Below, in pieces: positions 8,466-42,366 of a stretch of DNA of 64,000 bases; position 1 is the stretch's first letter; every line of letters starts with the position of its first letter. The position numbers and the translations under genes are program-made. The DNA comes from a candidate division FCPU426 bacterium (GTDB lineage Bacteria; Oederibacteriota; Muellerivitia; Muellerivitales; Muellerivitaceae): positions 64,001 through 128,000 of the forward strand of contig CAVYSE010000005.1 of assembly GCA_963771075.1 (NCBI GenBank), written 5' to 3'. A model generated the notes under the pieces. The model saw only the letters and a list, made by a program, of their open reading frames with translations, did no database searches and was not told the DNA's origin.

Positions 8466-8493
8466 TGACCATGACGGGGACCCGTCGTGGACA
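8466..8493 (+). repeat. 28-bp palindromic cassette site, copy 1
   Basis: TGACCATGACGGGGACCCGTCGTGGACA. Confidence 0.85.
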
Positions 8494-8603
8494 TGGGAAA
8501 TAACTCGTTTTAACCCCGATTAGGACAGAACTTTTACCCCTCCTGTTTCGTCCTATAATTATCCAGGTGTTTGTAGTCTCGTTTTCGGGAAAGAGGTAAA
8601 GCT

Positions 8604-9419
8604 ATGAAACCAACCCATGGTTTTCCAAGTCTGTTAAAAATGGCTTTAACCTTGGCGGTTGCCTTTTTATTCAGCGGATGCGCGCAAAATCCCATGCCGC
8701 CCCTCTTCAGCCTTTACGGCTACCAGCGCCTGGCCATCATCCCCTTTGACAACAAAACGCAGGACCCGGCCTTGGCCGACGCCCTCCAGGATGAAATGGC
8801 CAGTGAGATCGTGAACCTCAACGCCCTTCCCGTCATTGAGGCGGGGCAGGTGGCGGCCTACCTGAAGTCCATCGGGGCAAAGGCTTCCGACGTGCCTACG
8901 GATCATGGATTGCGGCAACAAATCGCCCAATATTTCAAATGCGACATCTTCTTATTGGGCACAGCCGATGGATATACCGAGTTACTCAAGGATGAGGCGC
9001 CCCAAAGGTCGGACTTGGGGTGGGGCTTTTACACGGACCGCAAGGTGGTCATCACCAACAGCGCCAAGCTGATGGACCCGGCCAGTGGCGGCATCCTCTG
9101 GTTCCGAAACAAGAACTGGGGCGCCAGTTGGCACAACACATGGAACCCCCTTCCCGTTCCGCAAACAGTGGTTCTTCCGGGTCTGTTGGGCCAATTCGTC
9201 GACCTGGCTAACATGGTGTTAAACCGGGTGGACCACAATGTGGATGTTGAGCCTCCCACGGTCGACGAAACCTATTCCGGCAGCCCGATCTACACCCAAA
9301 GCAGGGCTTTTGCCAGGCAACGCCAGAAGGCCATTGTCGCCACGGTGAATTCCCTGGTGGATGACTTCCAGGGCCATTACAACTGGACGCCGGGGTTAAG
9401 GACCAACAACAACCAATAA
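8604..9419 (+). CDS. Lipoprotein (cassette gene)
   Basis: Lipobox FSGC; RLAIIPFDNKT resembles CsgG/GNA1162-type lipoproteins. Confidence 0.7.
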   Translation: MKPTHGFPSLLKMALTLAVAFLFSGCAQNPMPPLFSLYGYQRLAIIPFDNKTQDPALADALQDEMASEIVNLNALPVIEAGQVAAYLKSIGAKASDVPTDHGLRQQIAQYFKCDIFLLGTADGYTELLKDEAPQRSDLGWGFYTDRKVVITNSAKLMDPASGGILWFRNKNWGASWHNTWNPLPVPQTVVLPGLLGQFVDLANMVLNRVDHNVDVEPPTVDETYSGSPIYTQSRAFARQRQKAIVATVNSLVDDFQGHYNWTPGLRTNNNQ

Positions 9420-9556
9420 GGCCGCAAGTGCGGGAAATCCGGTTACCGATTCCCTTCGGAAAACAATGAAAAAATGGTATTGATTTGTCCGGGATGTGAA
9501 GCTGTTTCAAGAATTGGAACAGGGGATTTTAGCGGGACACATTGGAATTCAGAAAT

Positions 9557-10372
9557 ATGAATAAAATCCCACAAACCGTATTGAAAGCATTCAATGTTGA
9601 AGCGGAAACGCAATTGTTGGATGGCGGCCAAGGTGAATCTTTTCGGGCGGGTAACATTGTCCTGAAACCAGCCCTCCTCGAAGCCGAATGGCTTGCCGAA
9701 AACCTTAAAGACTTAAAAGAAGATGGTTTCAGAATCCCAAGGCCCGTTTCAACAAGGGATGGGAAGTGGATCTTTGATCGATGGTGCGCCTGGACTTTTA
9801 TTTATGGCCGGCATGATCCCACGCGTGTGCAAGAGATAGTCCAAACCGCGAAGGTGTTTAATGCTTCGCTCAAGGGGTTTTCCAGGCCGGATTTTCTGGA
9901 TCAACGGCAGGATCCTTGGGCCATAGCGGATCGAATGGCATGGGGTGAGATTCCAATAGCTTGCCACCCCTCCCTTATGGTACCGATCAATAGAATTTCC
10001 GAACTTTTAAAACCGATTGATCTGCCGAGCCAGCTTATCCACTGTGATCTTATCGGCAACGTTCTTTTTGAGGATGAACATGCACCTGGAGTCATTGATT
10101 TTTCCCTTAACTGGCGGCCTCCCGATTATTCCCTCGCCATTATTGTGGTTGACGCAATGAACTGGAATGGCGCTGATGAATCAGTTCTGCGATATATTGG
10201 TGATGTTCCTGATTTTTTTCAGCTTTTGATCAGAGCCCAAATATTCCGCCTGGCTGTTTTGGAAGGATTTCGTCAAAGAGGGGCGGACATATCCCGAGGA
10301 ATAAGAGGAGAAGAAAGAACCGTTGAACTGATATGCGGAAAGCTCAAAGATAAATACCACAAAACTGCTTAA
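9557..10372 (+). CDS. Aminoglycoside-phosphotransferase-like kinase (cassette gene)
   Basis: LDGGQG, HCDLIGNVLF, VIDFS motifs. Confidence 0.8.
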   Translation: MNKIPQTVLKAFNVEAETQLLDGGQGESFRAGNIVLKPALLEAEWLAENLKDLKEDGFRIPRPVSTRDGKWIFDRWCAWTFIYGRHDPTRVQEIVQTAKVFNASLKGFSRPDFLDQRQDPWAIADRMAWGEIPIACHPSLMVPINRISELLKPIDLPSQLIHCDLIGNVLFEDEHAPGVIDFSLNWRPPDYSLAIIVVDAMNWNGADESVLRYIGDVPDFFQLLIRAQIFRLAVLEGFRQRGADISRGIRGEERTVELICGKLKDKYHKTA

Positions 10373-10378
10373 GTAGGT

Positions 10379-10406
10379 TGTCCGCGACGGGGACCCATCG
10401 CGAACA
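10379..10406 (+). repeat. 28-bp palindromic cassette site
   Basis: TGTCCGCGACGGGGACCCATCGCGAACA, 6 nt after a stop codon. Confidence 0.9.
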
Positions 10407-10453
10407 TCTAATGTGGGTTGGAGTTATACGATGGGCTATCGTATAATTAAGCT

Positions 10454-10669
10454 ATGAAAGTCACCGCGCTATTACCCGATAAACTAGTACGGGAAGTCCA
10501 AGGTTTTGCCAAAGGCAAAAACCTCACGGAATCGCTCGTCAAAGCATTATCGGAATGGAACCAACAACAAAAAATCAGGGATTTGAATCAACTGGTTCTT
10601 GAGCATCCCCTGGGTTTCTCCAAAACTTTTTCCGCCCCTCGCGTTCGAGCCAAAAACAGAAAATCATGA
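10454..10669 (+). CDS. vapB: VapB-like antitoxin (DUF2191-like)
   Basis: Short RHH-like ORF overlapping the PIN gene (ATGA); palindrome TTATACGAT..ATCGTATAA upstream. Confidence 0.75.
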   Translation: MKVTALLPDKLVREVQGFAKGKNLTESLVKALSEWNQQQKIRDLNQLVLEHPLGFSKTFSAPRVRAKNRKS

Positions 10670-11040
10670 TCCTTGTCGATACCTCCATTTGGGTGGAGTT
10701 TCTCAAGGGGCATCAACCCTATTTTGATCAAATGAAACAATTGTTGGAGGAACGCCAAGTCCTTGCGGTCGAACCTGTTTTCGGCGAATTGCTCCAAGGA
10801 GCTAAAGATGACCGTGAAAGGCGGATTCTTCAGGGATTTTGGGAAAATCTTCCCAAAAATAAAATACAGGATGCCTGGGTGAAGGCGGGGGAATTATCCT
10901 CCCGAAAAAAATGGAGTGATCGCGGAATCGGATTGATCGACGTGGTCTTGATTATTTCCTCTCGGGATTCAAACGCAAAGATTTGGTCTTTAGATAAGAA
11001 GTTAAATAGCGTATTGCACAAGAATGAGATTTTTGAATAG
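10666..11040 (+). CDS. vapC: VapC PIN-domain toxin
   Basis: MILVDTSIW, ELLQGA, IGLID, WSLDK. Confidence 0.9.
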   Translation: MILVDTSIWVEFLKGHQPYFDQMKQLLEERQVLAVEPVFGELLQGAKDDRERRILQGFWENLPKNKIQDAWVKAGELSSRKKWSDRGIGLIDVVLIISSRDSNAKIWSLDKKLNSVLHKNEIFE

Positions 11041-11047
11041 CTTTGCT

Positions 11048-11075
11048 TGTTTACGATGAGGTCCCATCGTGGACA
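11048..11075 (+). repeat. 28-bp palindromic cassette site
   Basis: TGTTTACGATGAGGTCCCATCGTGGACA. Confidence 0.85.
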
Positions 11076-11140
11076 TGAAAAATCATGGATAATGGGCTTG
11101 GTCTCCTTGTTCCACTATCCCAGTGAAAGGTAGTAAATAA

Positions 11141-12754
11141 ATGAAATACCAATGGTTGTTCGCGTTCTTGCTTGCAGTTCCATCCTGGGCCCTTCCCGCC
11201 GACAAGGCATTTGAATTATTTCCTCCGGCCAATAACGCCGCGCCGGAGACCTTTACCAAGGCGGTCCAACCCTTCCCGGCGGAGGGCAAGCCCTGGAAGT
11301 TCGCTCATGGCGCCAAGGTCCAGGTCAAGGTGGATGCCGCGCAGGTTCTGCAAAAGATCACCCCCTATCAATTCGGGTCCAATCTCGCCTGTTGGGATAA
11401 CAAACAATTCGTGAACGACCCGGATTGCCAGGAAAAGGTCAGGCAGGCGGGCATCCGGTTCTGGCGCTGGCCGGGAGGCAGTACCTCGGACAACTACCAT
11501 TGGGATGGCAAGTATGGGGACCATACCAAGGACCATGACGGGGGGAACCCGCCGAATATGAACGAACCCTGGGCCGCCTCCACCGACGATTTCATTTCCT
11601 TCTGCCAGAAGACGAATTCGGAAGCCATCGTGACGGTCAACTACGGCGCAGCCCGTTATGAGAATGTCCGGTACGCGGCCGACCTGGCCGCCCGGTGGGT
11701 GCATTATTTCAACTTCGAGAAGAATTTCAGGGTGCGTTATTGGGAGATTGGCAACGAGAATTTCGGGTCCTGGGAAGAGGGGAACCAGCTGGCAGGCAAA
11801 TCGCAATTGACCGGCGATGTCTATGGCAAGGATTTCCAGGTGATCGCCTCGGCCATGCGAAAAGTGGACCCGGACATCTTTATCGGGGCGGTGGCCGTGG
11901 ACAAGGACAGCGGGGATGATTGGAATGGTTACCACTGGTGGATGAGGGGCCTTCTGCCCCAGCTTCAACGGAAAGCCGATTTCCTGATCTTCCATGAATA
12001 TTTCATATGGCCCTTCGATGGCGCGAAAAACTATACCAATCCCAGCAACCAGGTTCTTCTGTCGAACCTTCACGAGATCCCCGACGCCAAGGCCGCTTTC
12101 GATGACATGGAAGACAAATACGCGCCGACCGAGAAGGGTTTGCCCATCGCCGCGACCGAGTTCAACATGATCAACGGCGATCCCCCCCAGACGATCCAAC
12201 TGTTGAACGGGTTATTTGCGGCGGAAGCCCTGGGGGAGATGATCAAGACGGGTTTCAAAAATTCCAACATCTGGGACCTGAAGAACGGCCTGGATGAGAA
12301 GCTCAAGGGGGACCATGGCTTGCTGGCCTATGGGGACTCCCGGATTCCGGCGGGTACACCCCGGCCGACCTATTACACTTACGCCCTTTATTCCCGGGCT
12401 TTCGGGGACACCCTGGTTTCGGCGGAGAGCGCGGACCCAACGGTAAAGATCTATGCCAGCCGTTTTTCGGGCGGGGAACTGGGTTTGGTCATCGTGAACG
12501 AGAATGACCAGAACCGCACGGCCGTTTTTGACCTGGCGGGGTTCAAGCCCCAGGGAAAACTGATGGGATGGGTCATGACCGGCAAGAATCTTAATGATTT
12601 TCAGGTTTCGTGGAACGGCGAAATGGGACCGGCGGGAGGGGGAGGGCCCTATCCCATCCAGACGATCCCGCCATACCGGGCCGTCTTCAAGACCAATCAA
12701 CCCCTCCAGCTACCCTTGCAAGCCAGGTCGGTTACGGGCCTTATCCTTTATTAG
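11141..12754 (+). CDS. Secreted clan GH-A glycoside hydrolase (arabinofuranosidase/GH51-like)
   Basis: Signal peptide, RWPGGSTSDNYHW, YWEIGNE, TEFN, C-terminal beta-sandwich. Confidence 0.8.
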   Translation: MKYQWLFAFLLAVPSWALPADKAFELFPPANNAAPETFTKAVQPFPAEGKPWKFAHGAKVQVKVDAAQVLQKITPYQFGSNLACWDNKQFVNDPDCQEKVRQAGIRFWRWPGGSTSDNYHWDGKYGDHTKDHDGGNPPNMNEPWAASTDDFISFCQKTNSEAIVTVNYGAARYENVRYAADLAARWVHYFNFEKNFRVRYWEIGNENFGSWEEGNQLAGKSQLTGDVYGKDFQVIASAMRKVDPDIFIGAVAVDKDSGDDWNGYHWWMRGLLPQLQRKADFLIFHEYFIWPFDGAKNYTNPSNQVLLSNLHEIPDAKAAFDDMEDKYAPTEKGLPIAATEFNMINGDPPQTIQLLNGLFAAEALGEMIKTGFKNSNIWDLKNGLDEKLKGDHGLLAYGDSRIPAGTPRPTYYTYALYSRAFGDTLVSAESADPTVKIYASRFSGGELGLVIVNENDQNRTAVFDLAGFKPQGKLMGWVMTGKNLNDFQVSWNGEMGPAGGGGPYPIQTIPPYRAVFKTNQPLQLPLQARSVTGLILY

Positions 12755-12828
12755 GTCGATAAGGTTGGCTTTCGACCGCAGCCGATAGATTAAACAGGTC
12801 TTGGACTGCCAATAAACCTTTTGTTACT

Positions 12829-12856
12829 TGTCCACGACGGGGACCCGTCGCGGACA
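12829..12856 (+). repeat. 28-bp palindromic cassette site
   Basis: TGTCCACGACGGGGACCCGTCGCGGACA. Confidence 0.92.
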
Positions 12857-12978
12857 GGTAATTCGAACCATGCCAACCCCCTTTTCAGGTCAAAGATTGA
12901 AGAGGTTTTAGATCCCATTGCAGGATTATCGATATAATGATATCATGATATCGTTACCATTCATTTGGGAGGAGACCC

Positions 12979-13230
12979 ATGGCCCAACTCATCGTTAGAA
13001 ATTTAGATGACAGCGTGAAGATGAAGCTGAGCCAAAGGGCCCGGAAGAATGGGCACAGCACGGAGGAAGAAGTACGGGATATCTTGAGAAACGCGGTAGG
13101 AAAAGATAGGGGCCTCGCCCCCATGCCATTGGGCGCCAGGTTTAAGGCGCGGTTTAGCAAGATAGGCCTAACTAGGGAAATCCCCGAATTGCGTGGACAG
13201 CAGGCCCAACCCGCCACCCTTGTCCCATGA
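12979..13230 (+). CDS. FitA/StbC-like RHH antitoxin
   Basis: MAQLIVRNLDD..RARKNGHSTEEEVRDIL. Confidence 0.85.
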   Translation: MAQLIVRNLDDSVKMKLSQRARKNGHSTEEEVRDILRNAVGKDRGLAPMPLGARFKARFSKIGLTREIPELRGQQAQPATLVP

Positions 13231-13646
13231 TCCTGCTCGATACAAATGTCCTTTCCGCATTGATGCTTCGGGAACCGGACCCTACGGTCGTTTCATGGCT
13301 GGATCGCCAGTCCGTTGAATCGGTTTGGACAACGACGATCACGGTATTTGAAATTCGGTTTGGCCTCGAGAACCTGGCGGGTGGGAAAAGACGGCGTCAG
13401 CTGGAAGAAATTTTTAACCAAACCCTGGAAATTGATTTGGAAGGCCGAGTCCTGCCATTTGACCTGGCCGCGGCCCGGGCGTCTGCCTCGATCGCGGCCC
13501 AACAAAGAAAAAGTGGGCGTCCGGTTGAGATACGAGATGTCCAGATTGCCGGGATCACTTTGGCCAGCAAGGCTACATTAGCCACCCGCAATATCCGGCA
13601 TTTCCAAGGGCTTGGTATCCATCTGATCGATCCCTGGAAAGCCTAG
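13227..13646 (+). CDS. vapC: FitB/VapC PIN toxin
   Basis: MILLDTNVLS, DVQIAG, LATRNIRHF, IDPW. Confidence 0.92.
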   Translation: MILLDTNVLSALMLREPDPTVVSWLDRQSVESVWTTTITVFEIRFGLENLAGGKRRRQLEEIFNQTLEIDLEGRVLPFDLAAARASASIAAQQRKSGRPVEIRDVQIAGITLASKATLATRNIRHFQGLGIHLIDPWKA

Positions 13647-13648
13647 CC

Positions 13649-13676
13649 TGTCCACGATGGGGACCCGGATTGGTCA
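13649..13676 (+). repeat. 28-bp cassette site, variant right arm
   Basis: TGTCCACGATGGGGACCCGGATTGGTCA, 2 nt after a stop codon. Confidence 0.85.
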
Positions 13677-13694
13677 AAGAAAGAAGGTTAGACA

Positions 13695-13973
13695 ATGGTA
13701 AATAAAAAGACGGTTGTGATGAAGATAAACATCAAGGCGTTCGGATTGGCTTGTGGTTTGTTGTGGGGTCTGGGAGTTTTAGGCCTGACTTGGTGGGTCA
13801 TCCTTTTCGAGGGGCCAACCCACGACCTGATGTTGCTTGGACACATCTACCGGGGTTATGACATCAGCCCCGCCGGAAGTTTGATTGGGACTGCTTATGG
13901 CCTGGTGGATGGAGGGGTGGGCGGCGTCGTTTTCGCCTGGCTTTATAACCTCCTCTGCGTCAAGTTCAAATGA
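13695..13973 (+). CDS. Small 2-TM membrane protein (family often annotated as holin)
   Basis: KAFGLACGLLWG..YRGY..GSLIG..FAWLYN. Confidence 0.7.
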   Translation: MVNKKTVVMKINIKAFGLACGLLWGLGVLGLTWWVILFEGPTHDLMLLGHIYRGYDISPAGSLIGTAYGLVDGGVGGVVFAWLYNLLCVKFK

Positions 13974-13993
13974 TCAGGTGTTGAGGAATAGCT

Positions 13994-14021
13994 TGTCCAC
14001 GATGGGGACCCTTCGTGGACA
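13994..14021 (+). repeat. 28-bp cassette site (intron target)
   Basis: TGTCCACGATGGGGACCCTTCGTGGACA followed by TC and intron copy 1. Confidence 0.92.
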
Positions 14022-14023
14022 TC

Positions 14024-16000
14024 GTGCCAGCGAAGGTTTGTAGAGCCAGCAGGTGAGGGAGTAGGCCGAAGAGGGCCAGCCCAAATCCTGACCAGGTAAT
14101 CGCCAGAGAGCCTGGAAGTCAGCCCCCGGCGTAGGACCGAGAGGTTCTGCCCGAAACGGGGTCATAAACCTCATTCAGTGAGGGAACAATCTAGCAGTCC
14201 GCAACATCAAGTGAATCCTGCCGCGTCGTGAATGGGACACCGAAAGGTGCAAGAGGATGCCGAGCCGCGTGTCTACCGGCGAAGGCCACGATCCCGCTGA
14301 AGAATCTGGAGCAAGCGGGGCAAGTCCTCCGGCGTATGGGGAACGGAATGCTGGAAAGGCTTTGCAAGCAACCTGGGAGATCCTACCCGCCAAAAGACTT
14401 GCCGCTATAAGGCTAAAACCGAAAAGGGGCAAGGGCGGGAGGAAGTCGGAGGGGGTCACAATACCTGTGAAGGGTGGACAACAAAACCACCTGGAGGGAA
14501 GGACCCCTGCTTCAACCAAGCAACCTTCAAAAGGGAGGCGCTGGAGCATGCCCCAAAGGGCCAACAACTCCGAAGACAAGGCGCGAACCCTTCAAAGGGC
14601 GCTATACCGAGCGGCCAAGAGGAGCCCAAGCCGGAGATTTCATGTACTGCATGACAGGATGACCCGATGGGATGTCCTGACAGCGGCATGGAAACAGGTG
14701 AAGGCTAATAAAGGCCAAGGAGGAGTGGACGGGGAAACGCTGGAATGGATCGAAGAGAAGGTGGGAATTATTCCATTCCTGAAGGGCATCCAGGAAGAAC
14801 TCAAAGCTGGGAAGTATCTGCCTAAACCTGTGAGACGAGTGGAAATACCCAAGCCTGATGGAAGCAAGAGACCGTTGGGAATCCCGGTAATTCGGGATCG
14901 GGTAGTTCAAGCGGCTTGCCGGAAGGTGGTGGAACCCATCTTTGAGGCGGACTTTCTGGAAGGCTCGTTTGGATTTCGGCCAAAACGCGGAGCCCAGCAG
15001 GCCCACCGGGAGATCAAGAAGTGGATCAATGGCGGGTACAGATGGGTGGTGGATGGAGATATTCGGAAGTATTTCGATTCCATCGACCACGACAAACTGA
15101 TGGTGCTGGTGCGCCAGAGGATCAGTGACCGGAAGGTTTTGAAACTGATCCGAGGGTGGCTGAAGGCGGGTGTGTTTGAGGAAGGAAGGCTTACGCCGAC
15201 TCTCCGAGGGACACCGCAAGGCGGGGTGATCTCACCGCTGTTATCCAATGTTTACCTTCACTTGCTGGACAAGGTTTGGAATAAGAGGCACAGGAAACTG
15301 GGTAGGCTGGTGCGCTACGCCGACGATTTTGTGGTGTTGTGCGGAAGCCAAGCCCATGCGGAAAAGAGCCTGGAAGTCATCAAGGAATTGATGGGACGAC
15401 TAGGGCTTGAACTGCACCCCGAAAAGACACGGCTGGTGGAAATGGGGCCTGGGAAGGAAGGGTTTGACTTCCTTGGGTTCCACTTTCGAGTAGGTATGCC
15501 GGTGGTAGGATTGGGTAAGACCTGTTGCCTGAGCTGGCCGAGCCGGAAGGCCATGAAGAAAATCGCCGAGAAAGTGAAGCAGATGACGGCGGGCCGAGAG
15601 CGGCTCTTATCTCCAATGGAGGATGTAGCGAAGGCTTTGAACCCGGTGTTAAGGGGGTGGGCCAACTATTTCCGAATTGGGGACAGCCAGCCATACTTTT
15701 CCAAGCTTCAATTTTACGTACTCGAAAGGCTGACTTTGTTTCGGAGGCATAAGTACGCCTGGGAAGGACGAACATGGTCGATCGAGGAAGTGAAACGCCT
15801 TGGTTTGAACTGGATTCCAGCTTTTGCCTTGAATGCTGCCGGTTGAAAGGTTGTCGGAAAGCCGTATGATCGAAAAGGTCACGTACGGTTTGATGAGGGG
15901 GCGCTGGAAACGTGGTGATGAGAGCCGGACTGAGGCCCAATCCGAAAGGGTTGGATTCGCCACCGTACTCTAAGGCATACGCGCCAGCGCTCTACTCTGC
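14024..16000 (+). mobile_element. Group II intron, copy 1 (~1977 bp)
   Basis: GTGCC 5' end, RT ORF, domain V AAGCCGTATGATCGAAAAGGTCACGTACGGTTT, long domain VI with bulged A; boundaries from 3-copy comparison (+/-2 nt). Confidence 0.93.
14548..15846 (+). CDS. ltrA: Group II intron reverse transcriptase/maturase, no endonuclease domain
   Basis: GVDG, RPLGIP, PQGGVISPLL, RYADD, FDFLGF, RGWANYF; RBS before ATG 14548. Confidence 0.95.
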   Translation: MPQRANNSEDKARTLQRALYRAAKRSPSRRFHVLHDRMTRWDVLTAAWKQVKANKGQGGVDGETLEWIEEKVGIIPFLKGIQEELKAGKYLPKPVRRVEIPKPDGSKRPLGIPVIRDRVVQAACRKVVEPIFEADFLEGSFGFRPKRGAQQAHREIKKWINGGYRWVVDGDIRKYFDSIDHDKLMVLVRQRISDRKVLKLIRGWLKAGVFEEGRLTPTLRGTPQGGVISPLLSNVYLHLLDKVWNKRHRKLGRLVRYADDFVVLCGSQAHAEKSLEVIKELMGRLGLELHPEKTRLVEMGPGKEGFDFLGFHFRVGMPVVGLGKTCCLSWPSRKAMKKIAEKVKQMTAGRERLLSPMEDVAKALNPVLRGWANYFRIGDSQPYFSKLQFYVLERLTLFRRHKYAWEGRTWSIEEVKRLGLNWIPAFALNAAG

Positions 16001-16036
16001 ACGAAAAGTCACGCATAAGAGGCAGTTTATGATTAG

Positions 16037-16456
16037 TTGGCCAATTTGAAAAAGATTAAACCCTGGGTGAAATTTTGGTTATTCGCAGGAACTTTATTAT
16101 TTGGTTACGTGTTTTGGGGGTTGGTTGAAGAAGTTGCTTTCAATAATCGATTTTTTATCCCCACTTTGAGTTCTCGGATGGTTCGGTTAACCGGGTTCAT
16201 TCATTTTCGCATAATCGACTTTTGGTGTTCCAATTGTATCTACGTTTTAGACAGTTCTGGCTCCCAAATTAAAGTGATCGTTCCCCAAAAAGTCCAAGAC
16301 GAAGTTCGGAGAACAAATTGGGGAGATTTAAAAAAGAACGGGAAAACAGTATTTGTTGACTTGAATGCAATATCTGGGGGTCTCGGGGATTATTATGTTT
16401 GTACGAGAGTCAATTCGATTAATGTCGTTGATGGAGTTGTTTCAGTAAGCAAATAA
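16037..16456 (+). CDS. Hypothetical protein with N-terminal TM (cassette gene)
   Basis: AT-rich ORF ending 14 nt before a site. Confidence 0.6.
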   Translation: MANLKKIKPWVKFWLFAGTLLFGYVFWGLVEEVAFNNRFFIPTLSSRMVRLTGFIHFRIIDFWCSNCIYVLDSSGSQIKVIVPQKVQDEVRRTNWGDLKKNGKTVFVDLNAISGGLGDYYVCTRVNSINVVDGVVSVSK

Positions 16457-16470
16457 TTCACATGAAGAGC

Positions 16471-34285: not shown

Positions 34286-34310
34286 GGGCAAATGTGCAAT
34301 TAATTGAATG

Positions 34311-35723
34311 CACTGCTATCCTAAACAACTCAATCTGACCGCTGCCCCCCAAGAAAAACAAGCGATTTTGGACAGGTTTGTGAATTTCCAGGGATAAGCC
34401 CCCCCCTTTCGTCCGGATGCTGTCCAAATCACGAGGGTATTAATTCCATCTGTTTTTCCGCCGGTTCCAATCTCGCCACCAGGAATGGTGCATCCAACCA
34501 AGCCCACAAATCGCGGTAGGTCAATAGATTCATCCGCAGCATGGCCGCCAAGTGGGACAGGCTCCAGGCGATATGGCTCTTCAGTTGAAGGAATTTCAAC
34601 AGCAGCATGGCAATCAATGCTGTCCAAATCTGCGTCTGAACAGCATTCTCAGTGGTCCCTACGAAAGTCTTCACCCGTAAGTTCTGCTTGAGAGCCTTGA
34701 AGAACAACTCGATCTGCCAACGTTCCTTGTAGATGGCCGCCACCGTCGAGGCAGCAAAACCCATGTGGTTGGTAAGGAATACGAGTTCCCGCTTCTGGTC
34801 TTCGTCCCATACCACCACTCGTCGCATCTCTTTCGGGTAGGCTTCCTGTGACCGAAACGTTGTTAACCGTATCACTTGGTCCTTCAGGACGTTGCCCGTT
34901 TTCGGAACCGGCAGGTTCTTCACCACCTCGTAGGCCATGTTGATCTTGGCACGGGTCACCCACCACACGCCTTGGAACGTCCATCGGGCCAGAAGAAAGA
35001 AATCCACATATCCCCGATCCATCACTACGATTGAATCCACCGGAAAATCCAGCTTTTGAGCCACTTTCACGTCATGCACGCCTCCCTCCGTTACGAGTCC
35101 CCAGCAGGGCAAGTATCCCTGATGATCCAGCAAGAGATGGAGTTTGATGGCCCCTTTGGTCCTACGGAACTTTGCCCAGTCGAAGACTGACAAACAAAGA
35201 TCAATGGTGCTGGAGTCCAGGCTGTAGAGGGGATTCTTGAACTTGAATTTCCTCTTCGAGATGGCCGCCTGTAGCTGACACTTCGATAGCAGATGGTAGA
35301 AAAGACTTTGCTGAACCTGCCAAGGACGGTTGGCGTTAGCGTAAGCCAAGGTGGATTTAGTGGGTGCTTCGCAAAGACCCAAATGGGTCAATTTCCCAAG
35401 GGCCGTGTGGAGGCCACCACAGATTTCCCTCAAGGAATGGGCGGCTCCCATCTGGCAGAAAAGCATGGAAACAAACTGATTCCAGCAACTGAACCCCTTG
35501 GCGTGTTTTTCGGCTTCAAACTCCCGCACAATTCGTTCAAAAGCCGTGCGATCCACAATTTTCAACACTTGGGCAAAAAGACTGGTTGGTGGTACCATCG
35601 AAATACGCCTCCGGATGTTTGAAGTAGCGACGGCTGGTAACCGTCGCTTTGGGCTTGTCGACTAACCCAATTCTACTTCAGTCGGAGGTGTCTTTTTTTA
35701 GTCCTTTATTTAGGACAAGAGTG
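34311..35723 (-). mobile_element. IS4-family insertion sequence, copy 1 (1413 bp), 9-bp TSD AATTGAATG
   Basis: Imperfect TIRs CACTGCTATCCTAAA / TTTAGGACAAGAGTG; TSD at 34302-34310 and 35724-35732. Confidence 0.92.
34429..35598 (-). CDS. IS4-family DDE transposase (DUF4372-type N-terminus)
   Basis: LDSSTI, MDRGY, YKERWQIELFFKALKQ. Confidence 0.95.
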   Translation of the reverse strand: MVPPTSLFAQVLKIVDRTAFERIVREFEAEKHAKGFSCWNQFVSMLFCQMGAAHSLREICGGLHTALGKLTHLGLCEAPTKSTLAYANANRPWQVQQSLFYHLLSKCQLQAAISKRKFKFKNPLYSLDSSTIDLCLSVFDWAKFRRTKGAIKLHLLLDHQGYLPCWGLVTEGGVHDVKVAQKLDFPVDSIVVMDRGYVDFFLLARWTFQGVWWVTRAKINMAYEVVKNLPVPKTGNVLKDQVIRLTTFRSQEAYPKEMRRVVVWDEDQKRELVFLTNHMGFAASTVAAIYKERWQIELFFKALKQNLRVKTFVGTTENAVQTQIWTALIAMLLLKFLQLKSHIAWSLSHLAAMLRMNLLTYRDLWAWLDAPFLVARLEPAEKQMELIPS

Positions 35724-35729
35724 AATTGA

Positions 35730-36383
35730 ATGTATTTTTTGAAAAGGGAAAAAATGAATTATTTTAATTACCAGATGATGCTTCCATTAACGTTCGGACT
35801 GGTCGCGAGTACCTTTCTCTATATCGGCTTAAGGGGTTTGGTGAAACGAAAGCCGTTTTTAATGCCTTCCAGGTGGATTATCTTCATGATGATCCCGATT
35901 TTGCTTCCTGGTTTCAGCCTGCCTTTTATGGTGCATCAAAATCCTGGCTTTGATCTGATAACCTGGGCCGATCCCCTCCTGCTTATCCTGATCTTCACCC
36001 TTTACTGGAAGATCACAAAAGGATATTCGGTGTATGGCGCGAACGCCGAAACGATCCGTAAATCGCTCCTGGCTGCGGTCAACGAGTTAAACCTGCAATA
36101 CACCGAAAACATGACGGGTATCTATTTGCCCGCCCACGACATTACCTTGACGGCATCGGTGGCAATGTCGATTGGGAAAATTAGTGTAAAAGGGAAAGAT
36201 ACGGGAGGGTTATTGAAAAGGGTGGCTGTGATCATGAAAAAGGAATTCGCGAATTCCGACTTCGAATGCGACCTGAAGCCTTTTTTGTTTTTTTTGGCCA
36301 TTGGCGTGATGATCTTGATCACAGCCTGTAAGGAGGTTTCGTTATTGCAAGAGATCGGAACGCACTACACCCCAAACCCATAA
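35730..36383 (+). CDS. Hypothetical membrane protein (cassette gene)
   Basis: About 4 TM segments; start could be 35754. Confidence 0.65.
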   Translation: MYFLKREKMNYFNYQMMLPLTFGLVASTFLYIGLRGLVKRKPFLMPSRWIIFMMIPILLPGFSLPFMVHQNPGFDLITWADPLLLILIFTLYWKITKGYSVYGANAETIRKSLLAAVNELNLQYTENMTGIYLPAHDITLTASVAMSIGKISVKGKDTGGLLKRVAVIMKKEFANSDFECDLKPFLFFLAIGVMILITACKEVSLLQEIGTHYTPNP

Positions 36384-36423
36384 TAGGCCCCATTCTGCAG
36401 GGGCTTCTGGGCACGCTACGGAT

Positions 36424-36451
36424 TTTCCACTGCGGGTCCCCGTCGTGGGAA
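36424..36451. repeat. Degenerate cassette site
   Basis: TTTCCACTGCGGGTCCCCGTCGTGGGAA. Confidence 0.7.
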
Positions 36452-36473
36452 GGCAAAATCAGAAAGAACAAGA

Positions 36474-36956
36474 ATGAACAAAGAAGTTAAAAGTCACCTT
36501 TCGACGATCGATAAATTACTTTCGTCTAAAAATGAGAAAAATATCTGGAAGGGGGCCGCGGACCTATGCGGTTACGTTATTGACCAGCCTGAACTAATCT
36601 GGGATCGAATTGTAAAATATGGTTCCCGAAACAATGGGGAGTTGCAACAGGCCATAGCTTTATGCGTTTTGGAGCATGTTTTTCAGTATCACTTCAATGA
36701 GTATTTCCCAAAAGCCAAGAAAATTATCCTTTCTGGTAATAAACGTTTCCGGGAAACTTTTTGTCAATGTGGTAAATTCGGTCAATCGGAGAAAAAGTCC
36801 AACTCGGCAAAATGGGACAAATTCATTTTTCAAACCGCGACATTTGGGGAAAAGGAAAGAATTCTATATTGGAAAAAATGGAATAAGTTAAAGAAAAAGG
36901 CAATGACGGGTGACCCCAAAGCAGTTAAGGCTTATCAAAAGTTCCGTTCTGTTTAG
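36474..36956 (+). CDS. Hypothetical protein (cassette gene)
   Basis: AT-rich 160-aa ORF between sites. Confidence 0.65.
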   Translation: MNKEVKSHLSTIDKLLSSKNEKNIWKGAADLCGYVIDQPELIWDRIVKYGSRNNGELQQAIALCVLEHVFQYHFNEYFPKAKKIILSGNKRFRETFCQCGKFGQSEKKSNSAKWDKFIFQTATFGEKERILYWKKWNKLKKKAMTGDPKAVKAYQKFRSV

Positions 36957-36985
36957 AATCGTAAAGTTCGGGTGATATATACGGC

Positions 36986-37013
36986 TGGCCAATTAGGGGC
37001 TCCTTCTTTGACA
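36986..37013 (+). repeat. Highly degenerate cassette site
   Basis: TGGCCAATTAGGGGCTCCTTCTTTGACA aligns without gaps to the consensus (~19/28). Confidence 0.5.
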
Positions 37014-37081
37014 ATAAAAGACCTATATAATGTACGTAATAATACCGTACATATGGTATATTGCCGATGGAGGGTATGACC

Positions 37082-37363
37082 ATGACGAAAGCTCTAAAAA
37101 CCAAAGAAGAACGTATCGAATTGAGGGTGAGGCCCCAGGACAAGCGACTGCTGGAAAAAGCGGCTCAAGCCCAAGGATTGAGCCTGAGTTCTTATCTTGT
37201 GACGAGATCCCTGCATGCGGCCCAGGAAGACGCGGTTCCGGTTAAAACCTACATACCCTCCAAGCGGGATGTGGACTTGTTTCTTCGGCTTCTGGAAACT
37301 CCCCCCCTGCCAAACGAAAAGCTTAAAGCGGCGGCGCGGCGTTATCAAAAAGAAATGTCCTGA
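37082..37363 (+). CDS. DUF1778 (TacA-like) antitoxin
   Basis: KEERIELRV..LLEKAA..LSSY..LLETPPLPNEKL; start uncertain. Confidence 0.88.
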   Translation: MTKALKTKEERIELRVRPQDKRLLEKAAQAQGLSLSSYLVTRSLHAAQEDAVPVKTYIPSKRDVDLFLRLLETPPLPNEKLKAAARRYQKEMS

Positions 37364-37371
37364 TCCGGACT

Positions 37372-37884
37372 ATGCCTGGCCCAAAATGGAAAATGGTACC
37401 CGTCACGGAAAAAGCTGAACTCCAATCTTTCGATTGCGGGATACCTGAACTCAATGATTACCTGAAAAGGTACGCGGGCCAGAACCACCGAAAAGGGTTG
37501 GGCAGCACTTACGTTCTCGTTCCCGCCGAGGGGGAACCACTGGCAGTCGGGTACCATACCTTAAGTATGGCTCAGGTGGATCTGCAAAACTTGCCCGAAT
37601 CCCATTGCAAAAACCTACCGAAGTATCCTGTTCCTGCGGTTCGATTAGGCCGTCTTGCCGTTGACCGCAAATGGCAAGGGGCTGGATTGGGGGAGATCCT
37701 ATTGATGGATGCGATTCACCGGTCTGTTGCGGCGGTTCAATCAGTCGCGGCTAAGTATAAGATCGTAGACGCTAAAAACAAAAAAGCTGAAGAGTTTTAC
37801 TTGCGCTACGGTTTTCATCCCTTTGAGGGAGGAGCCCATTCCCTGGTTGCCGCTATCGACACGTTAAAAGGGCTTTTTGGGTAG
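37372..37884 (+). CDS. GNAT acetyltransferase toxin (TacT/AtaT-like)
   Basis: FDCGIPELNDYL, LGRLAVD..QGAGLG..LLMDA, VDAKN..FY..YGF. Confidence 0.9.
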   Translation: MPGPKWKMVPVTEKAELQSFDCGIPELNDYLKRYAGQNHRKGLGSTYVLVPAEGEPLAVGYHTLSMAQVDLQNLPESHCKNLPKYPVPAVRLGRLAVDRKWQGAGLGEILLMDAIHRSVAAVQSVAAKYKIVDAKNKKAEEFYLRYGFHPFEGGAHSLVAAIDTLKGLFG

Positions 37885-37891
37885 AAAGGTT

Positions 37892-37919
37892 TGTCCGCGA
37901 CGGGGGGCCGGGATGGGCA
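37892..37919 (+). repeat. Cassette site, variant right arm
   Basis: TGTCCGCGACGGGGGGCCGGGATGGGCA, 7 nt after a stop codon. Confidence 0.75.
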
Positions 37920-37934
37920 AATAAATAATTTGAA

Positions 37935-38432
37935 TTGAGGAGGATGATCGTGCGTAGATTGAAATCGCTTGGGATGATCGGGTTGGTTCTGGGCCTCGTT
38001 TTATTGGGTATGAATCATTGGGGCTGCTCAAGCTCGGATAACGAAGCCGATAGCAAGGCCTACGTGGATAAAGTCGCGCCGGTCCTATTCAAGGACTGGG
38101 ATTCGACCCTCATTTTGGCCGAAGCCGATCCGGATCTGAAGAATTTCGCCGACACGAATAAAGACGCCTTCGATAAAGGGATCCAATCCTTCAAGGACGC
38201 GGTTGGCTCCATGAAAACCTACAAAGGCGCGACCCTTTTGGGGAAACCCACCGAAGGGCCGGACCATACGGTCGTCGCCGGTTATTCCGTTGAGGCAGAT
38301 TTCGAGAAAGGGACCAGCAAGGTTTTAGTGACCACTACCCTCCGCGGCGGGAAATGGCAGATGGGTCTTTTTAACCTCGACCCGCAAGCCGAGTTGCAAA
38401 GGATGACCAAGGCCCTGACCCCGAACCCTTAA
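37935..38432 (+). CDS. Hypothetical exported/lipoprotein (cassette gene)
   Basis: Hydrophobic leader + GC; YSVEADFEKG..GKWQ; start uncertain. Confidence 0.65.
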   Translation: MRRMIVRRLKSLGMIGLVLGLVLLGMNHWGCSSSDNEADSKAYVDKVAPVLFKDWDSTLILAEADPDLKNFADTNKDAFDKGIQSFKDAVGSMKTYKGATLLGKPTEGPDHTVVAGYSVEADFEKGTSKVLVTTTLRGGKWQMGLFNLDPQAELQRMTKALTPNP

Positions 38433-38496
38433 ACCACCGGATGGGCCGGGAGTTTCGGCGGCCAAACGAACCATCGGCTTTTAGCTGATAAAGCTT

Positions 38497-38561
38497 TTTC
38501 CACGGCGGGCCATGTAGCTAAGCGCAAGCGCATGCTACATGGCGGGAACCAGAATAACCCG
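38497..38561 (+). repeat. Degenerate cassette site with the same 37-bp insertion
   Basis: TTTCCACGGCGGG + identical 37-mer (38510-38546). Confidence 0.75.
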
Positions 38562-38642
38562 CGATTGTACCTTCGCTATTTCAATGGGCCGTTTGACAAA
38601 TTAACTGAGAGTATTACAATGTATTACATATAGGAGGGTTCG

Positions 38643-38861
38643 ATGAAAACCATGTTAAACGTTCGCTTGACGCCCGAATTGGGCCGGCAGTTGGAAAAAG
38701 CTTCCAAAGAAGGAAAAATCCCCGTTAGTGATATAGTCCGCGAATCTTTAAAACGTTATGTGGTTGTTTTGCGTTTCCAAGAGCTGCAGAAAAAAATGAT
38801 TAAAAAAGCGAGAAAGAAAGGGGTTTTCACTGACGAGGACGTATTCAAGATCGTTTCATGA
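38643..38861 (+). CDS. CopG/RHH antitoxin
   Basis: LNVRL..SDIVRESL..FTDEDVFKIVS; overlaps the PIN gene. Confidence 0.85.
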   Translation: MKTMLNVRLTPELGRQLEKASKEGKIPVSDIVRESLKRYVVVLRFQELQKKMIKKARKKGVFTDEDVFKIVS

Positions 38862-39262
38862 AAATCGTTCTGGATACCAATGTTTATATTGCCGCTTTAG
38901 TCACCCAAGGCCTTTGCGCCGAAGTTTATCAATATTGCCTCCAATATCATGAACTCGTCCTATCCGATTACATTCTCAAAGAAATTCGACGTAATCTCAC
39001 CCGTAAATTCGGCCAATCGGCTTCGGATGTGTCGGAAGCGCTGGAGATATTGTCCGAAGGGGCTTTGAAAGTCACGCCCCACCCACTTGATAAACCTGTG
39101 AGCCGGGATTCATCCGACGACCCTATTCTTGGAACTGCCCTGGCGGGTAAAGTTGATTATCTTGTCTCGGGAGACAAGGATTTACTTTCGCTCAAACGTT
39201 ATGGGCAAATCCGTATTATTTCACCCCGGGATTTTTGGACAAAGATGATGGGGTCTGAATAG
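38858..39262 (+). CDS. PIN-family toxin
   Basis: VLDTNV, RDSSDDPIL..A, LVSGDKDLL, IISPRDF. Confidence 0.9.
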   Translation: MKIVLDTNVYIAALVTQGLCAEVYQYCLQYHELVLSDYILKEIRRNLTRKFGQSASDVSEALEILSEGALKVTPHPLDKPVSRDSSDDPILGTALAGKVDYLVSGDKDLLSLKRYGQIRIISPRDFWTKMMGSE

Positions 39263-39287
39263 CAGAAGCCGTTTTTTAATTTTAAAG

Positions 39288-40208
39288 ATGCGTCAAAAGG
39301 GTTTAATTTTGGTTAAAAAGAATAGTAAACAAAGCGCCATTTACCTTCCCTTCGCGATCGGGTTGATCCTTTCCCTCATCCTGGGAACGGTGGTTTGGCG
39401 GTGGTTTTATATCGTATTCAGTTCCATCGGTTTATTCATCTCGATAGGGAATTGGATCCAGTCCCGCTCGGTTCAACCCGATCTTGGCCGAAGGGTGAGC
39501 CTTCTTCTCATCCTGCCTATCTTCATCGTCTTTTTTGGCTTCTTCCAACGGGAAAATATGCAATTGGAGGAAACGGTTTTTTACGGGGCCTTTTTCCTGG
39601 CCGGGGGCGTATTCACCCGGGTGCTGATCCATTATTCCATCGCAAAGGTGTTCGGCCCGCTCCTCTTCGGGAGGGGTTTTTGCGGCTGGGCCTGTTGGAC
39701 CGCCGCTATCTTGGATTGGCTGCCGATTAAAGAAAACAACCCCATCCCCGCGAAATACACTTGGGTCCGCTGGCCCGTCTTGGCGGTTTCCATCGGCCTT
39801 CCTTTTTACCTCATTCGCGCGGGATACAACTATATGGAGGGGCATATTCAGGGGGACGCGGGTAACCTGATCCAAACCCACAAATGGGACCAATTCCTCT
39901 GGTTCTTGGCCGGAAACGGCCTTTATTACTTAAGCGGGATCCTGTTGGCTTTCGCGTTCAAAAAAAGAAGGGCTTTTTGCAAGATCGCCTGCCCGGTGTC
40001 GCTGGTGATGAAGGTTCCATCCAGGTTTTCGATCATCCGCAAGAGACCCTCGGGGGAAAACTGTTCGGGCTGCGGAAAATGCAACAAGGAATGCCCGATG
40101 GATGTGGATGTCCGGAGCTATATTCAAAAAGGGCTTAAAATACTTTCCGCGGAGTGCATCCTCTGCGGTAAGTGCAGCCAGGTTTGCCCAACCCACGCGA
40201 TTCTCTGA
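39288..40208 (+). CDS. Membrane 4Fe-4S binding protein (NapH/YccM-like)
   Basis: GRGFCGWAC, RAFCKIACP, two CxxCxxCxxxCP motifs. Confidence 0.85.
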   Translation: MRQKGLILVKKNSKQSAIYLPFAIGLILSLILGTVVWRWFYIVFSSIGLFISIGNWIQSRSVQPDLGRRVSLLLILPIFIVFFGFFQRENMQLEETVFYGAFFLAGGVFTRVLIHYSIAKVFGPLLFGRGFCGWACWTAAILDWLPIKENNPIPAKYTWVRWPVLAVSIGLPFYLIRAGYNYMEGHIQGDAGNLIQTHKWDQFLWFLAGNGLYYLSGILLAFAFKKRRAFCKIACPVSLVMKVPSRFSIIRKRPSGENCSGCGKCNKECPMDVDVRSYIQKGLKILSAECILCGKCSQVCPTHAIL

Positions 40209-40231
40209 ACTGGTTGGATTGAAATGTTGGT

Positions 40232-40296
40232 TGTCCGCAGCGGGCCATGTAGCTAAGCGCAAGCGCATGCTACATGGCGGGAACCCGGTTTGGACT
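40232..40296 (+). repeat. Cassette site with the same 37-bp insertion
   Basis: TGTCCGCAGCGGG + identical 37-mer (40245-40281) + AACCCGGTTTGGACT. Confidence 0.82.
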
Positions 40297-40629
40297 TCTC
40301 TTTTGGCCACATATTGGGTACTTGGTTCCTAAAACCCCGACTTAAGGGATTTAACCGGAGCTAAAATAACGGCAATTCAAAGCGGATAATTGAATGGTTC
40401 GAGTCCAACCCGGGGAGCAATTAAATATTATTCAAAGGATATATTAATGGATGAAGATAAAAACCTTAGTTTTTTAAAAACGGTTCATACCGTAACTATT
40501 CTTATCGGTTTTTTCATTGGCGTTTTATCTTTTTTTTCAAGTTTTGGGATCGGTATGGTGATGAGCAATGCCGACACCGATTGGGTTGGTACGCCATATC
40601 AAGCGGATGTATAACTTTGCCTGCAATCT

Positions 40630-42042
40630 CACTCTTGTCCTAAATAAAGGACTAAAAAAAGACACCTCCGACTGAAGTAGAATTGGGTTAGTCGACAAGC
40701 CCAAAGCGACGGTTACCAGCCGTCGCTACTTCAAACATCCGGAGGCGTATTTCGATGGTACCACCAACCAGTCTTTTTGCCCAAGTGTTGAAAATTGTGG
40801 ATCGCACGGCTTTTGAACGAATTGTGCGGGAGTTTGAAGCCGAAAAACACGCCAAGGGGTTCAGTTGCTGGAATCAGTTTGTTTCCATGCTTTTCTGCCA
40901 GATGGGAGCCGCCCATTCCTTGAGGGAAATCTGTGGTGGCCTCCACACGGCCCTTGGGAAATTGACCCATTTGGGTCTTTGCGAAGCACCCACTAAATCC
41001 ACCTTGGCTTACGCTAACGCCAACCGTCCTTGGCAGGTTCAGCAAAGTCTTTTCTACCATCTGCTATCGAAGTGTCAGCTACAGGCGGCCATCTCGAAGA
41101 GGAAATTCAAGTTCAAGAATCCCCTCTACAGCCTGGACTCCAGCACCATTGATCTTTGTTTGTCAGTCTTCGACTGGGCAAAGTTCCGTAGGACCAAAGG
41201 GGCCATCAAACTCCATCTCTTGCTGGATCATCAGGGATACTTGCCCTGCTGGGGACTCGTAACGGAGGGAGGCGTGCATGACGTGAAAGTGGCTCAAAAG
41301 CTGGATTTTCCGGTGGATTCAATCGTAGTGATGGATCGGGGATATGTGGATTTCTTTCTTCTGGCCCGATGGACGTTCCAAGGCGTGTGGTGGGTGACCC
41401 GTGCCAAGATCAACATGGCCTACGAGGTGGTGAAGAACCTGCCGGTTCCGAAAACGGGCAACGTCCTGAAGGACCAAGTGATACGGTTAACAACGTTTCG
41501 GTCACAGGAAGCCTACCCGAAAGAGATGCGACGAGTGGTGGTATGGGACGAAGACCAGAAGCGGGAACTCGTATTCCTTACCAACCACATGGGTTTTGCT
41601 GCCTCGACGGTGGCGGCCATCTACAAGGAACGTTGGCAGATCGAGTTGTTCTTCAAGGCTCTCAAGCAGAACTTACGGGTGAAGACTTTCGTAGGGACCA
41701 CTGAGAATGCTGTTCAGACGCAGATTTGGACAGCATTGATTGCCATGCTGCTGTTGAAATTCCTTCAACTGAAGAGCCATATCGCCTGGAGCCTGTCCCA
41801 CTTGGCGGCCATGCTGCGGATGAATCTATTGACCTACCGCGATTTGTGGGCTTGGTTGGATGCACCATTCCTGGTGGCGAGATTGGAACCGGCGGAAAAA
41901 CAGATGGAATTAATACCCTCGTGATTTGGACAGCATCCGGACGAAAGGGGGGGGCTTATCCCTGGAAATTCACAAACCTGTCCAAAATCGCTTGTTTTTC
42001 TTGGGGGGCAGCGGTCAGATTGAGTTGTTTAGGATAGCAGTG
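40630..42042 (+). mobile_element. IS4-family insertion sequence, copy 2 (1413 bp), 9-bp TSD CTGCAATCT
   Basis: Inverted copy of 34311-35723; TSD at 40621-40629 and 42043-42051. Confidence 0.92.
40755..41924 (+). CDS. IS4-family DDE transposase
   Basis: Translation identical to copy 1. Confidence 0.95.
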   Translation: MVPPTSLFAQVLKIVDRTAFERIVREFEAEKHAKGFSCWNQFVSMLFCQMGAAHSLREICGGLHTALGKLTHLGLCEAPTKSTLAYANANRPWQVQQSLFYHLLSKCQLQAAISKRKFKFKNPLYSLDSSTIDLCLSVFDWAKFRRTKGAIKLHLLLDHQGYLPCWGLVTEGGVHDVKVAQKLDFPVDSIVVMDRGYVDFFLLARWTFQGVWWVTRAKINMAYEVVKNLPVPKTGNVLKDQVIRLTTFRSQEAYPKEMRRVVVWDEDQKRELVFLTNHMGFAASTVAAIYKERWQIELFFKALKQNLRVKTFVGTTENAVQTQIWTALIAMLLLKFLQLKSHIAWSLSHLAAMLRMNLLTYRDLWAWLDAPFLVARLEPAEKQMELIPS

Positions 42043-42366
42043 CTGCAATCTTGATTGGCATCATCCTTCCAAGAGTTAGCGCAATTTTATTGTGGGGTGC
42101 GGCGTTAGTGACGGCATTCCTTGTAATCATTAATGGTCATAAGGGTTTATCTGTAGCAGTTAGCCAGGATATTTATTGGGGCAATTTCTGCTGGTGGCAA
42201 CTAACAGTGATGATGATAGTGTTGGGGTCGGCTTTGTTTTTTATAGGGTGGAAAAAAAGATCAATCTTACTAACAAAAAAATAGTGTTCTAACATCGAAT
42301 TATTACGAATTTGATGGTTCACAGATTCGGAATAGATGAACAAAGGGTTCAAGCTGGGGCTTTATT

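Follow-up and report, generated by a model that had tools for sequence, protein, structure and literature searches.

Introduction

The literature searched attributes gene-by-gene cassette arrays to tyrosine recombinases (IntI, Xer). Integrons and attC-site clusters that have no integron-integrase (CALINs), as presented in the sections of PMC4889954 that treat them, consist of co-oriented arrays of one- and two-gene cassettes with a stop codon near the next site and a cargo rich in toxin–antitoxin (TA) and unknown genes; many arrays have no enzyme nearby, and their sites are hit by group II introns and an IS110-family element. The same holds for the system described here, from a candidate division FCPU426 bacterium (GenBank assembly GCA_963771075.1, contig CAVYSE010000005.1). 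The window analysed comprises positions 64,001 to 128,000 of the forward strand (64,000 nucleotides, numbered from 1) and contains a cassette array at 8466..40296 built on a 28-bp site. In contrast to integrons and CALINs, there is no IntI and there are no attC boxes. The site is fixed in length and conserved in sequence, without covariation between its arms; a linked serine recombinase faces the array, there is no attI-type gradient, and cassette leaders are long, some of them with promoter-like motifs. The system works like an integron, yet it fails the tests that define one, and its probable enzyme, a serine recombinase, is without the C-terminal parts that define large serine integrases.

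Large serine integrases (Listeria A118/LI, Bxb1, phiC31 and SPbeta SprA) share catalytic and recombinase domains with this enzyme, and an attachment site at the 3' end of the integrase gene, but use attP/attB pairs of 40-50 bp, according to the parts of PMC3783163 concerned with them. Here the sites are symmetric, 28 bp long and number more than 100 per genome, and the enzyme has no zinc ribbon or coiled coil. The tRNA-targeting relatives within the family likewise share both domains and the gene-3'-end attachment site with the short recombinase.

The staphylococcal cassette chromosome (SCC, SCCmec) has Ccr serine recombinases and forms composite islands by tandem accumulation of modules. A serine recombinase on a mobile element, recombination between like sites and tandem accumulation are common to SCC and the present system, and CcrA/B are active on attP x attP pairs in the relevant section of PMC3783163. 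SCC, however, uses full-length Ccr at one locus to move multi-kb islands, whereas here the median unit is 0.8 kb and one genome holds 18 clusters; the NCBIfam Ccr models gave 60-74 bits against cut-offs of 700-900.

In Acinetobacter pdif modules, as described in the part of PMC9771954 devoted to them, 28-bp sites also bound shuffled single genes or TA pairs; the present sites differ in sequence, are direct and chromosomal, and coexist with a host Xer that has a separate site. The phage-inducible chromosomal island-like element PLE 1 of Vibrio cholerae offers another likeness, a mobile-element serine recombinase that targets the repeat of a cassette array, but the account in PMC6002521 gives PLE Int a zinc ribbon, a coiled coil, a need for a phage recombination directionality factor and a target in a true integron. 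No account of cassette arrays operated by a serine recombinase was found in the open-licence literature searched.

Results

The site and its clustering

The site reads as a 13-2-13 palindrome, a geometry typical of serine recombinases, with an asymmetric GA core (positions 14-15) at its centre of symmetry. A first-pass annotation, made from the letters of the window, had listed 19 positions, and each proved to be a site or a derivative of one. Thirteen, from 8466 to 31991, are good 28-bp copies (30-47 bits), and 36424 is a good 28-bp copy with a reversed core. Those at 36986 (6 bits) and 37892 (16 bits) are decayed, while at 34221, 38497 and 40232 a 37-nt insert mid-site makes the site a long form of 65 bp. 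The housekeeping flanks were free of copies, as the annotation had stated; elsewhere in the window the score reached at most 7.4 bits.

The profile, trained on the window copies, was then run across the source genome (G000, 4.39 Mb), where 109 positions scored at least 18 bits, compared with 0 and 1 in two shuffled genomes. With long forms included there are 118 sites at 30 loci, 18 of which are clusters of at least two sites and 12 of which are single sites. The array at 8466-40296 is real, but the site is not restricted to it. In G000 the scan proposed to tell clustering from dispersal came out for clustering, with a neighbour within 4 kb for 103 of the 118 sites (mean 22 and maximum 41 in 1000 random placements). 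Adjacent sites are almost always direct (81/85 pairs), and the core points along the strand of the upstream gene at 99/118 sites and of the downstream gene at 95/117 (background 3254/4480 adjacent genes).

The two arms do not covary. Across 98 sites, positions 10 and 19 varied independently (Fisher p = 1), and 208 right-only and 66 left-only changes were counted against 28 paired double changes, with the inner right arm uncompensated. This favours recognition of the sequence as double-stranded DNA and disfavours an attC-like hairpin. As a single strand the site folds into a 12-bp hairpin of -11.2 kcal/mol. A U tract (at least 5 T in the next 8 nt) follows only 28 of 509 sites on the gene strand and 35 of 509 on the opposite strand. 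No gradient of site quality, as an attI-like end would have, was seen along 56 arrays, some of them overlapping (mean rho -0.03).

Allowing three mismatches, 25 of the 30 other family genomes and the single genome of a sister family had the site, as against none of 67 genomes from other orders of the phylum; a reversed control pattern gave zero matches. These are counts over relatives that are not independent and genomes that are in many cases incomplete.

Shuffling of cassettes between genomes

The material taken from G000 and from selected arrays (rather than whole genomes) of its relatives comprised 535 sites, with 398 segments bounded by co-oriented sites. The segments had a median length of 812 bp, and 242 contained one gene and 105 two. 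Most genes lie on the strand of the site (566/608), and the median distance from stop codon to site is 20 nt.

Site-to-site homology joined 66 pairs of cassettes in 28 families, and 62 of the pairs were between genomes; one self-pair within a genome (L023/L011) had been dropped, which reduced pairs from 67 to 66 and cassettes from 398 to 397. In 65 of the 66 pairs the neighbours were unrelated on both sides, so that comparison among relatives, as the annotation had suggested, revealed differing cassette order. The exception is an inverted duplication on C26 of G000, where part of an array (138321-143721) is duplicated and inverted around an intron fragment, through biology or as an assembly artefact. 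Two window cassettes occur whole elsewhere, 10379-11048 in three genomes and 13649-13994 in two. Cassettes of 975 bp (G067/G053) and 388 bp (G051/G000) are 100% identical between genera, although mis-binning is possible for the shorter contigs; despite sharing the 388-bp cassette, G051 and G000 have Xer proteins of only 70% identity. In four runs from four studies (low-depth assembled contigs, window 7000-18590), the short side of joints between sites measured at most 28 letters, the site itself, so these joints are evidence of neither excision nor circles. The rows between sites are almost certainly real cassette arrays, and the 66 homologue pairs support the earlier proposal of a cassette capture and shuffling system with a non-attC site and a recombinase encoded elsewhere.

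Pfam bore out the four TA pairs reported for the window: a PIN gene at 10666 (its partner had no match), FitA+PIN, TacA+GNAT and ribbon-helix-helix (RHH)+PIN. The cargo had been called mostly AT-rich, and it is so only moderately, with a median GC of 0.47 in 78 G000 cassettes compared to 0.53 for the window. Of 99 proteins encoded by cassettes in the G000 arrays beyond the window, 20 were of TA toxin type by Pfam and 41 had no match at E 1e-5. Cassette leaders have a median length of 59 nt, and 67 of 256 contain a promoter-like motif (27.9 in shuffled leaders, a 2.4-fold difference). Given these long leaders and motifs, many cassettes probably carry their own promoter. An HflX-like GTPase gene forms a cassette in three genomes, with approximately 90% identity (G000 C3:344996-346502, G053 L028 and G047 L143).

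Position of the crossover

Nine pairs of sites had the same 300 nt on the left and unrelated sequence on the right, and here differences between the two sites were confined to positions 16-28. With an identical right flank (9 pairs) they were confined to positions 1-10, and one less similar pair reached 11. Exchange of DNA therefore took place within positions 11-15, an interval that spans the GA at the symmetry centre and is the same for small cassettes and for the end of a larger element. In looser pairs, shared variants at 19-25 tracked the right flank in 60 cases against 13, and variants at 16-28 tracked the left flank in 5 against 57, while left-arm variants tracked the left flank in 9 against 9.

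A short serine recombinase beside the site

The search for recombinase genes adjoining arrays, as previously proposed, led to a short serine recombinase. It is the product of the only resolvase-domain gene found in G000 (C8:80002-80835, 277 aa), whose stop codon lies 14 nt before the last site of an array that it faces; three broken copies in the same genome each abut a site. The protein consists of a catalytic domain (PF00239) and a recombinase domain (PF07508), with no zinc ribbon and no coiled coil. It contains the YxRVSS serine and the DRLxR motif, can be aligned to TP901-1 integrase, and keeps S20, R18, D89, R90 and R93 invariant across 20 sequences. The top Foldseek matches of a predicted model (mean pLDDT 67) were the SPbeta, Bxb1 and phiC31 integrases.

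The protein clusters nearest to the recombinase, 19 in number, measure 275-283 aa, are 68-96% identical and all lack PF13408; the next matches are at most 61% identical. In a quick tree this short clade forms one branch among full-length integrases (SH-aLRT 100), and the stop codons that end the short genes are seen in their loci. Lys plus Arg number 25-30 in the last 120 residues of the short clade, against 18-19 for three full-length relatives; this more basic C-terminus may offset the missing zinc ribbon and coiled coil.

At 7 of the 9 short-clade loci a site follows 8-34 nt past the stop codon; at the remaining two it is split by an intron (G054) or cut by the contig end (L144). By contrast, none of seven full-length relatives in site-bearing genomes had a site behind the gene. 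These seven loci are the real control, a further 110 recombinase loci without a site, the majority of them from other taxa, being a weak one. The genes of the family's nearest full-length serine integrases (L099, L100, L117 and L118) have tRNA-like sequence at the 3' end, and their reading frames thus seem to cross the attachment site.

The Listeria integrase sections of PMC3783163 describe a recombinase domain in contact with 13 bp of each half-site, a zinc ribbon that reads positions 16-24 and, once the coiled coil is removed, promiscuous excision of all site pairs tested. By analogy, a 13-2-13 site is the substrate to be expected of an enzyme with only catalytic and recombinase domains.

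A probable carrier element and insertions at the site

The recombinase gene in G000 heads a 37-kb segment between two sites (C8 44039-80850) that also encodes ArdC and a VirB4/TraG-like ATPase. The same block is present in G051, with the VirB4/TraG-like genes upstream of the recombinase and syntenic in both genomes; ArdC occurs in G000, G054 and G067. In G067 a 7-kb stretch between two sites contains ArdC and RadC, in G050 a conjugation-like block runs directly into an array, and in G053 the recombinase gene is near core genes. On C12 of G000 a coupling protein and ParA/ParB lie beside another site. As no relaxase was identified among 37 proteins scanned, we call the element only ICE-like (resembling an integrative and conjugative element).

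Other elements insert at the site. One group II intron has approximately 11 copies in G000, directly 3' of either site arm and on either strand; its ends look non-canonical, the GTGCC start being preceded by two additional bases and the last bases being GC. In G066, G067 and G070, related introns have the same insertion habit. A second lineage inserts inside the site and splits it (L135:15100-17130 in G054, where the site is the one beside the recombinase gene, and G000 C3:168386-169987). Group II introns target the cassette sites much as the IIC-attC introns in the relevant part of PMC7923331 insert at attC. The only other copy found in G000 of the IS110-family element of the window, on C9, likewise abuts a site. 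The 37-nt hairpin insert, with a 4-nt repeat, has 13 mid-site copies in G000, where it restores part of a left arm; none was found in the arrays retrieved from other genomes.

G000 also has 17 matches to Y1 genes resembling REP-associated tyrosine transposases (RAYT-like; REP, repetitive extragenic palindrome), besides three of IS200 type. These genes (approximately 17, each encoding approximately 318 aa; for example C6:1580, C3:103928, C18:221080 and C21:73610) are framed by short terminal inverted repeats, and near-identical copies stand at unrelated places. They look mobile as insertion sequence (IS)-like units. Most of the Y1 genes among the matches listed have no site within 6 kb.

Discussion

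Judging from its domains and its place beside the site, the short serine recombinase is probably the enzyme that shuffles the cassettes. It would bind the two 13-bp arms in double-stranded DNA through its catalytic and recombinase domains and cut at the central GA, excising cassettes as circles and inserting them at other copies of the site, while the asymmetric core would hold them in one orientation. Without a coiled coil, any two like sites could recombine, and hence there would be no attI-like primary site. The recombinase gene would ride a conjugative-type element whose attachment site is a copy of the repeat; this element would visit genomes, shuffle cassettes and carry them between genera, then decay and leave arrays without an enzyme. 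Broken recombinase copies in two more site-bearing genomes (G070 and G072), and remnants of its 3'-end DNA adjoining a site in G047 and G066, fit such a visiting element. On balance we favour an independent invention of the integron, in which a large serine integrase of the tRNA-targeting kind shed both zinc ribbon and coiled coil and turned into a bidirectional recombinase with a single short symmetric site, now serving a family-wide cassette pool with conjugative carriage between genera.

Several observations weigh against this account. The chief weakness is that an intact short recombinase was found in only 5 of 27 site-bearing genomes; the protein was not found in the site-rich G044, G047, G048, G049, G052 and G066, which are 86-99% complete. 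The interval 11-15 would also fit a 6-bp overlap, with a single informative pair at 16-17, and the crossover pairs are not mutually independent. With less similar flanks, there were 6 left-arm differences despite a shared left flank and 8 right-arm differences despite a shared right flank (3 of the 8 being one pair counted twice). In the deletion experiments excerpted from PMC3783163, Listeria integrase without its coiled coil gave no intermolecular integration, and without its zinc ribbon it bound approximately 25-fold more weakly, so integration by the short recombinase is not guaranteed. How a new gene first gains sites is unexplained by the model.

The short recombinase could instead be merely the integrase of a conjugative element that lands on the repeats, with some other enzyme building and shuffling the arrays. 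PLE 1 Int, which recombines with the V. cholerae repeat in the corresponding section of PMC6002521, is a precedent. The absence of the gene from most site-bearing genomes, its location in an ICE-like region and the fact that introns, IS110 and the small insert also target the site all point this way. We nevertheless regard it as unlikely: the 13-2-13 symmetry is as expected for this enzyme, and the site beside its gene is an ordinary member of the repeat family, so the enzyme should act between array sites too. No other recombinase was found at arrays, and the crossover interval of small cassettes is also that of the element end. An improbable reading makes the site a single-stranded hairpin for an HUH (RAYT-like) enzyme, or has cassettes moved by group II introns. 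The predicted hairpin, the 17 Y1 matches and the fact that two or more intron lineages have inserted at or within the site, recalling the IIC-attC introns covered in part of PMC7923331, agree with it, but the predominance of unpaired arm changes does not, the Y1 genes have inverted repeats of their own and most shuffled cassettes are free of introns. We rejected RAYT as the mover from these repeats, the distance from sites of most of the Y1 genes listed and the lack of arm covariation. That the repeat is a terminator, a REP-like or a regulatory element, with gene order changed by other means, would suit the short distance from stop codon to site and the 12 single-site loci among 30 in G000. 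This reading, to which we give very little weight, is largely refuted by the crossover mapping: each half of a site travels with its own flank, homology of shared cassettes is bounded by sites, and the U tract is missing.

The annotation had read the 28 bp as an 11-6-11 XerCD dif or pdif site, to be recombined by the chromosomal Xer. The length, the fit of the crossover interval to a 6-bp spacer and the presence of a single Xer-like gene in 31 of 32 genomes of the order speak for it. Five of the genomes with xer, however, have no site within three mismatches; no short recombinase was found in them either. Moreover, in 26 of 30 loci another palindrome, AT-rich and of 11-6-11 form, stands directly upstream of xer (L305:1469-1496, which is G000 C6:114166, and 25 other loci). 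This candidate dif matches the cassette site at 4 of 28 bases and has one full copy in G000, and its linkage to the gene resembles that of XerS/difSL as reported in the pertinent part of PMC2731167. The cassette site itself was in none of the 30 xer loci, and cassette sites are direct, whereas pdif modules are described with inverted sites in the title of a work cited in PMC9771954. As Xer has its own, unrelated upstream palindrome, the dif reading is disfavoured and we hold it to be highly improbable. A weaker look-alike of the candidate dif lies at C12:14579, in an element-like region. The G000 tyrosine recombinases (PF00589) number eight: a trio of the recombinase-in-trio (RIT) type, four phage-like integrases and the Xer-like gene. 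The trio, 3.8 kb past the window end, and the phage-like integrases were rejected as movers, since they are not beside arrays. A divergent integron, with IntI and atypical attC, would match the layout and TA-rich cargo of sedentary chromosomal integrons and CALINs, but its probability is close to nil. All eight proteins scored at most 76 bits on TIGR02249 (cut-off 265), and the boxes RYYYAAC and GTTRRRY occurred at 22 and 19 of 509 sites, and together at 2, which is chance level (17.4, 27.0 and 1.15 with shuffled flanks); the annotation had likewise seen neither attC boxes nor an integrase. TIGR02249 also matched in 0 of 32 genomes of the order, in a weak search where control genomes gave no match either.

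If cassettes are indeed moved by a serine recombinase, cassette capture has evolved convergently, and the question of how cassettes are made gains a second system. Tools based on attC would be blind to such arrays, which could then be common and unrecorded. As a natural recombinase of 277 aa whose 28-bp site tolerates arm variation, the enzyme would allow a direct test of the need for a zinc ribbon and coiled coil, and could become a compact tool enzyme.

Features of the window

The array and its surroundings are as follows.

8466..40296, plus strand: cassette array with 19 sites or derivatives, of which 18 point the same way as the genes
8466..8493, plus strand: first 28-bp site, directly behind a 273-aa gene (7572-8393)
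8604..10372, plus strand: two-gene cassette, predicted lipoprotein (no Pfam match) and APH-family phosphotransferase
10379..11075, plus strand: site, TA cassette (small gene and PIN), site; the entire cassette has homologues in G054, G066 and G070, beside other neighbours
11141..12754, plus strand: one-gene cassette, 537 aa, no Pfam match
12829..13676, plus strand: site, FitA and PIN TA cassette, site; downstream flank also in G048 beside another neighbour
13649..14021, plus strand: site, 92-aa membrane-protein cassette, site; whole homologues in G050 and G052 (90-94%)
14022..16000, plus strand: group II intron (reverse transcriptase/maturase reading frame 14257-15846), directly 3' of site 13994
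16471..16498, plus strand: 28-bp site
17950..17977, plus strand: 28-bp site, near consensus
18563..20569, plus strand: 28-bp site, then at once a second intron copy (18591-20569)
21596..22948, minus strand: IS110-family element at the left edge of site 22949
22949..22976, plus strand: 28-bp site, consensus copy
23663..25669, plus strand: 28-bp site, then at once a third intron copy (23691-25669)
26331..26358, plus strand: 28-bp site
26551-29725, minus strand: two large genes, unlike typical cassettes
30998..31630, plus strand: broken Y1 (RAYT-like) gene with its own inverted repeats
31638..32018, plus strand: remnant of the end of a larger repeated element (also on C3, C13, C21 and C9), stopping in the left half of site 31991
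34221..34285, plus strand: long-form site, central 37-nt hairpin insert with 4-nt repeat
34429..35598, minus strand: IS4-family transposase
36424..36451, minus strand: 28-bp site, reversed core
36986..37919, plus strand: decayed site, TacA and GNAT TA cassette, decayed site
38497..38561, plus strand: long-form site with decayed right arm, then RHH and PIN TA pair and 4Fe-4S protein gene
40232..40296, plus strand: long-form site, last of the array
40755-41924, plus strand: IS4-family transposase, protein identical to that of 34429..35598

A shorter copy of the larger-element remnant precedes site 34221. The first-pass annotation had overlooked both remnants, the three identical group II introns, the IS110 and two IS4 elements and the broken RAYT-like gene. 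The 273-aa gene before the array has orthologues in G047 and G048 with no array behind them.

An Rfam scan of the window matched only the group II intron and a SAM riboswitch. The latter, of type SAM-I (S-adenosylmethionine), is at 3866-3997, upstream of a gene for a pyridoxal phosphate-dependent enzyme. Positions 43908-47735 encode a secreted-type protein of 1275 aa that contains Kelch repeats as well as long Thr/Pro repeats.

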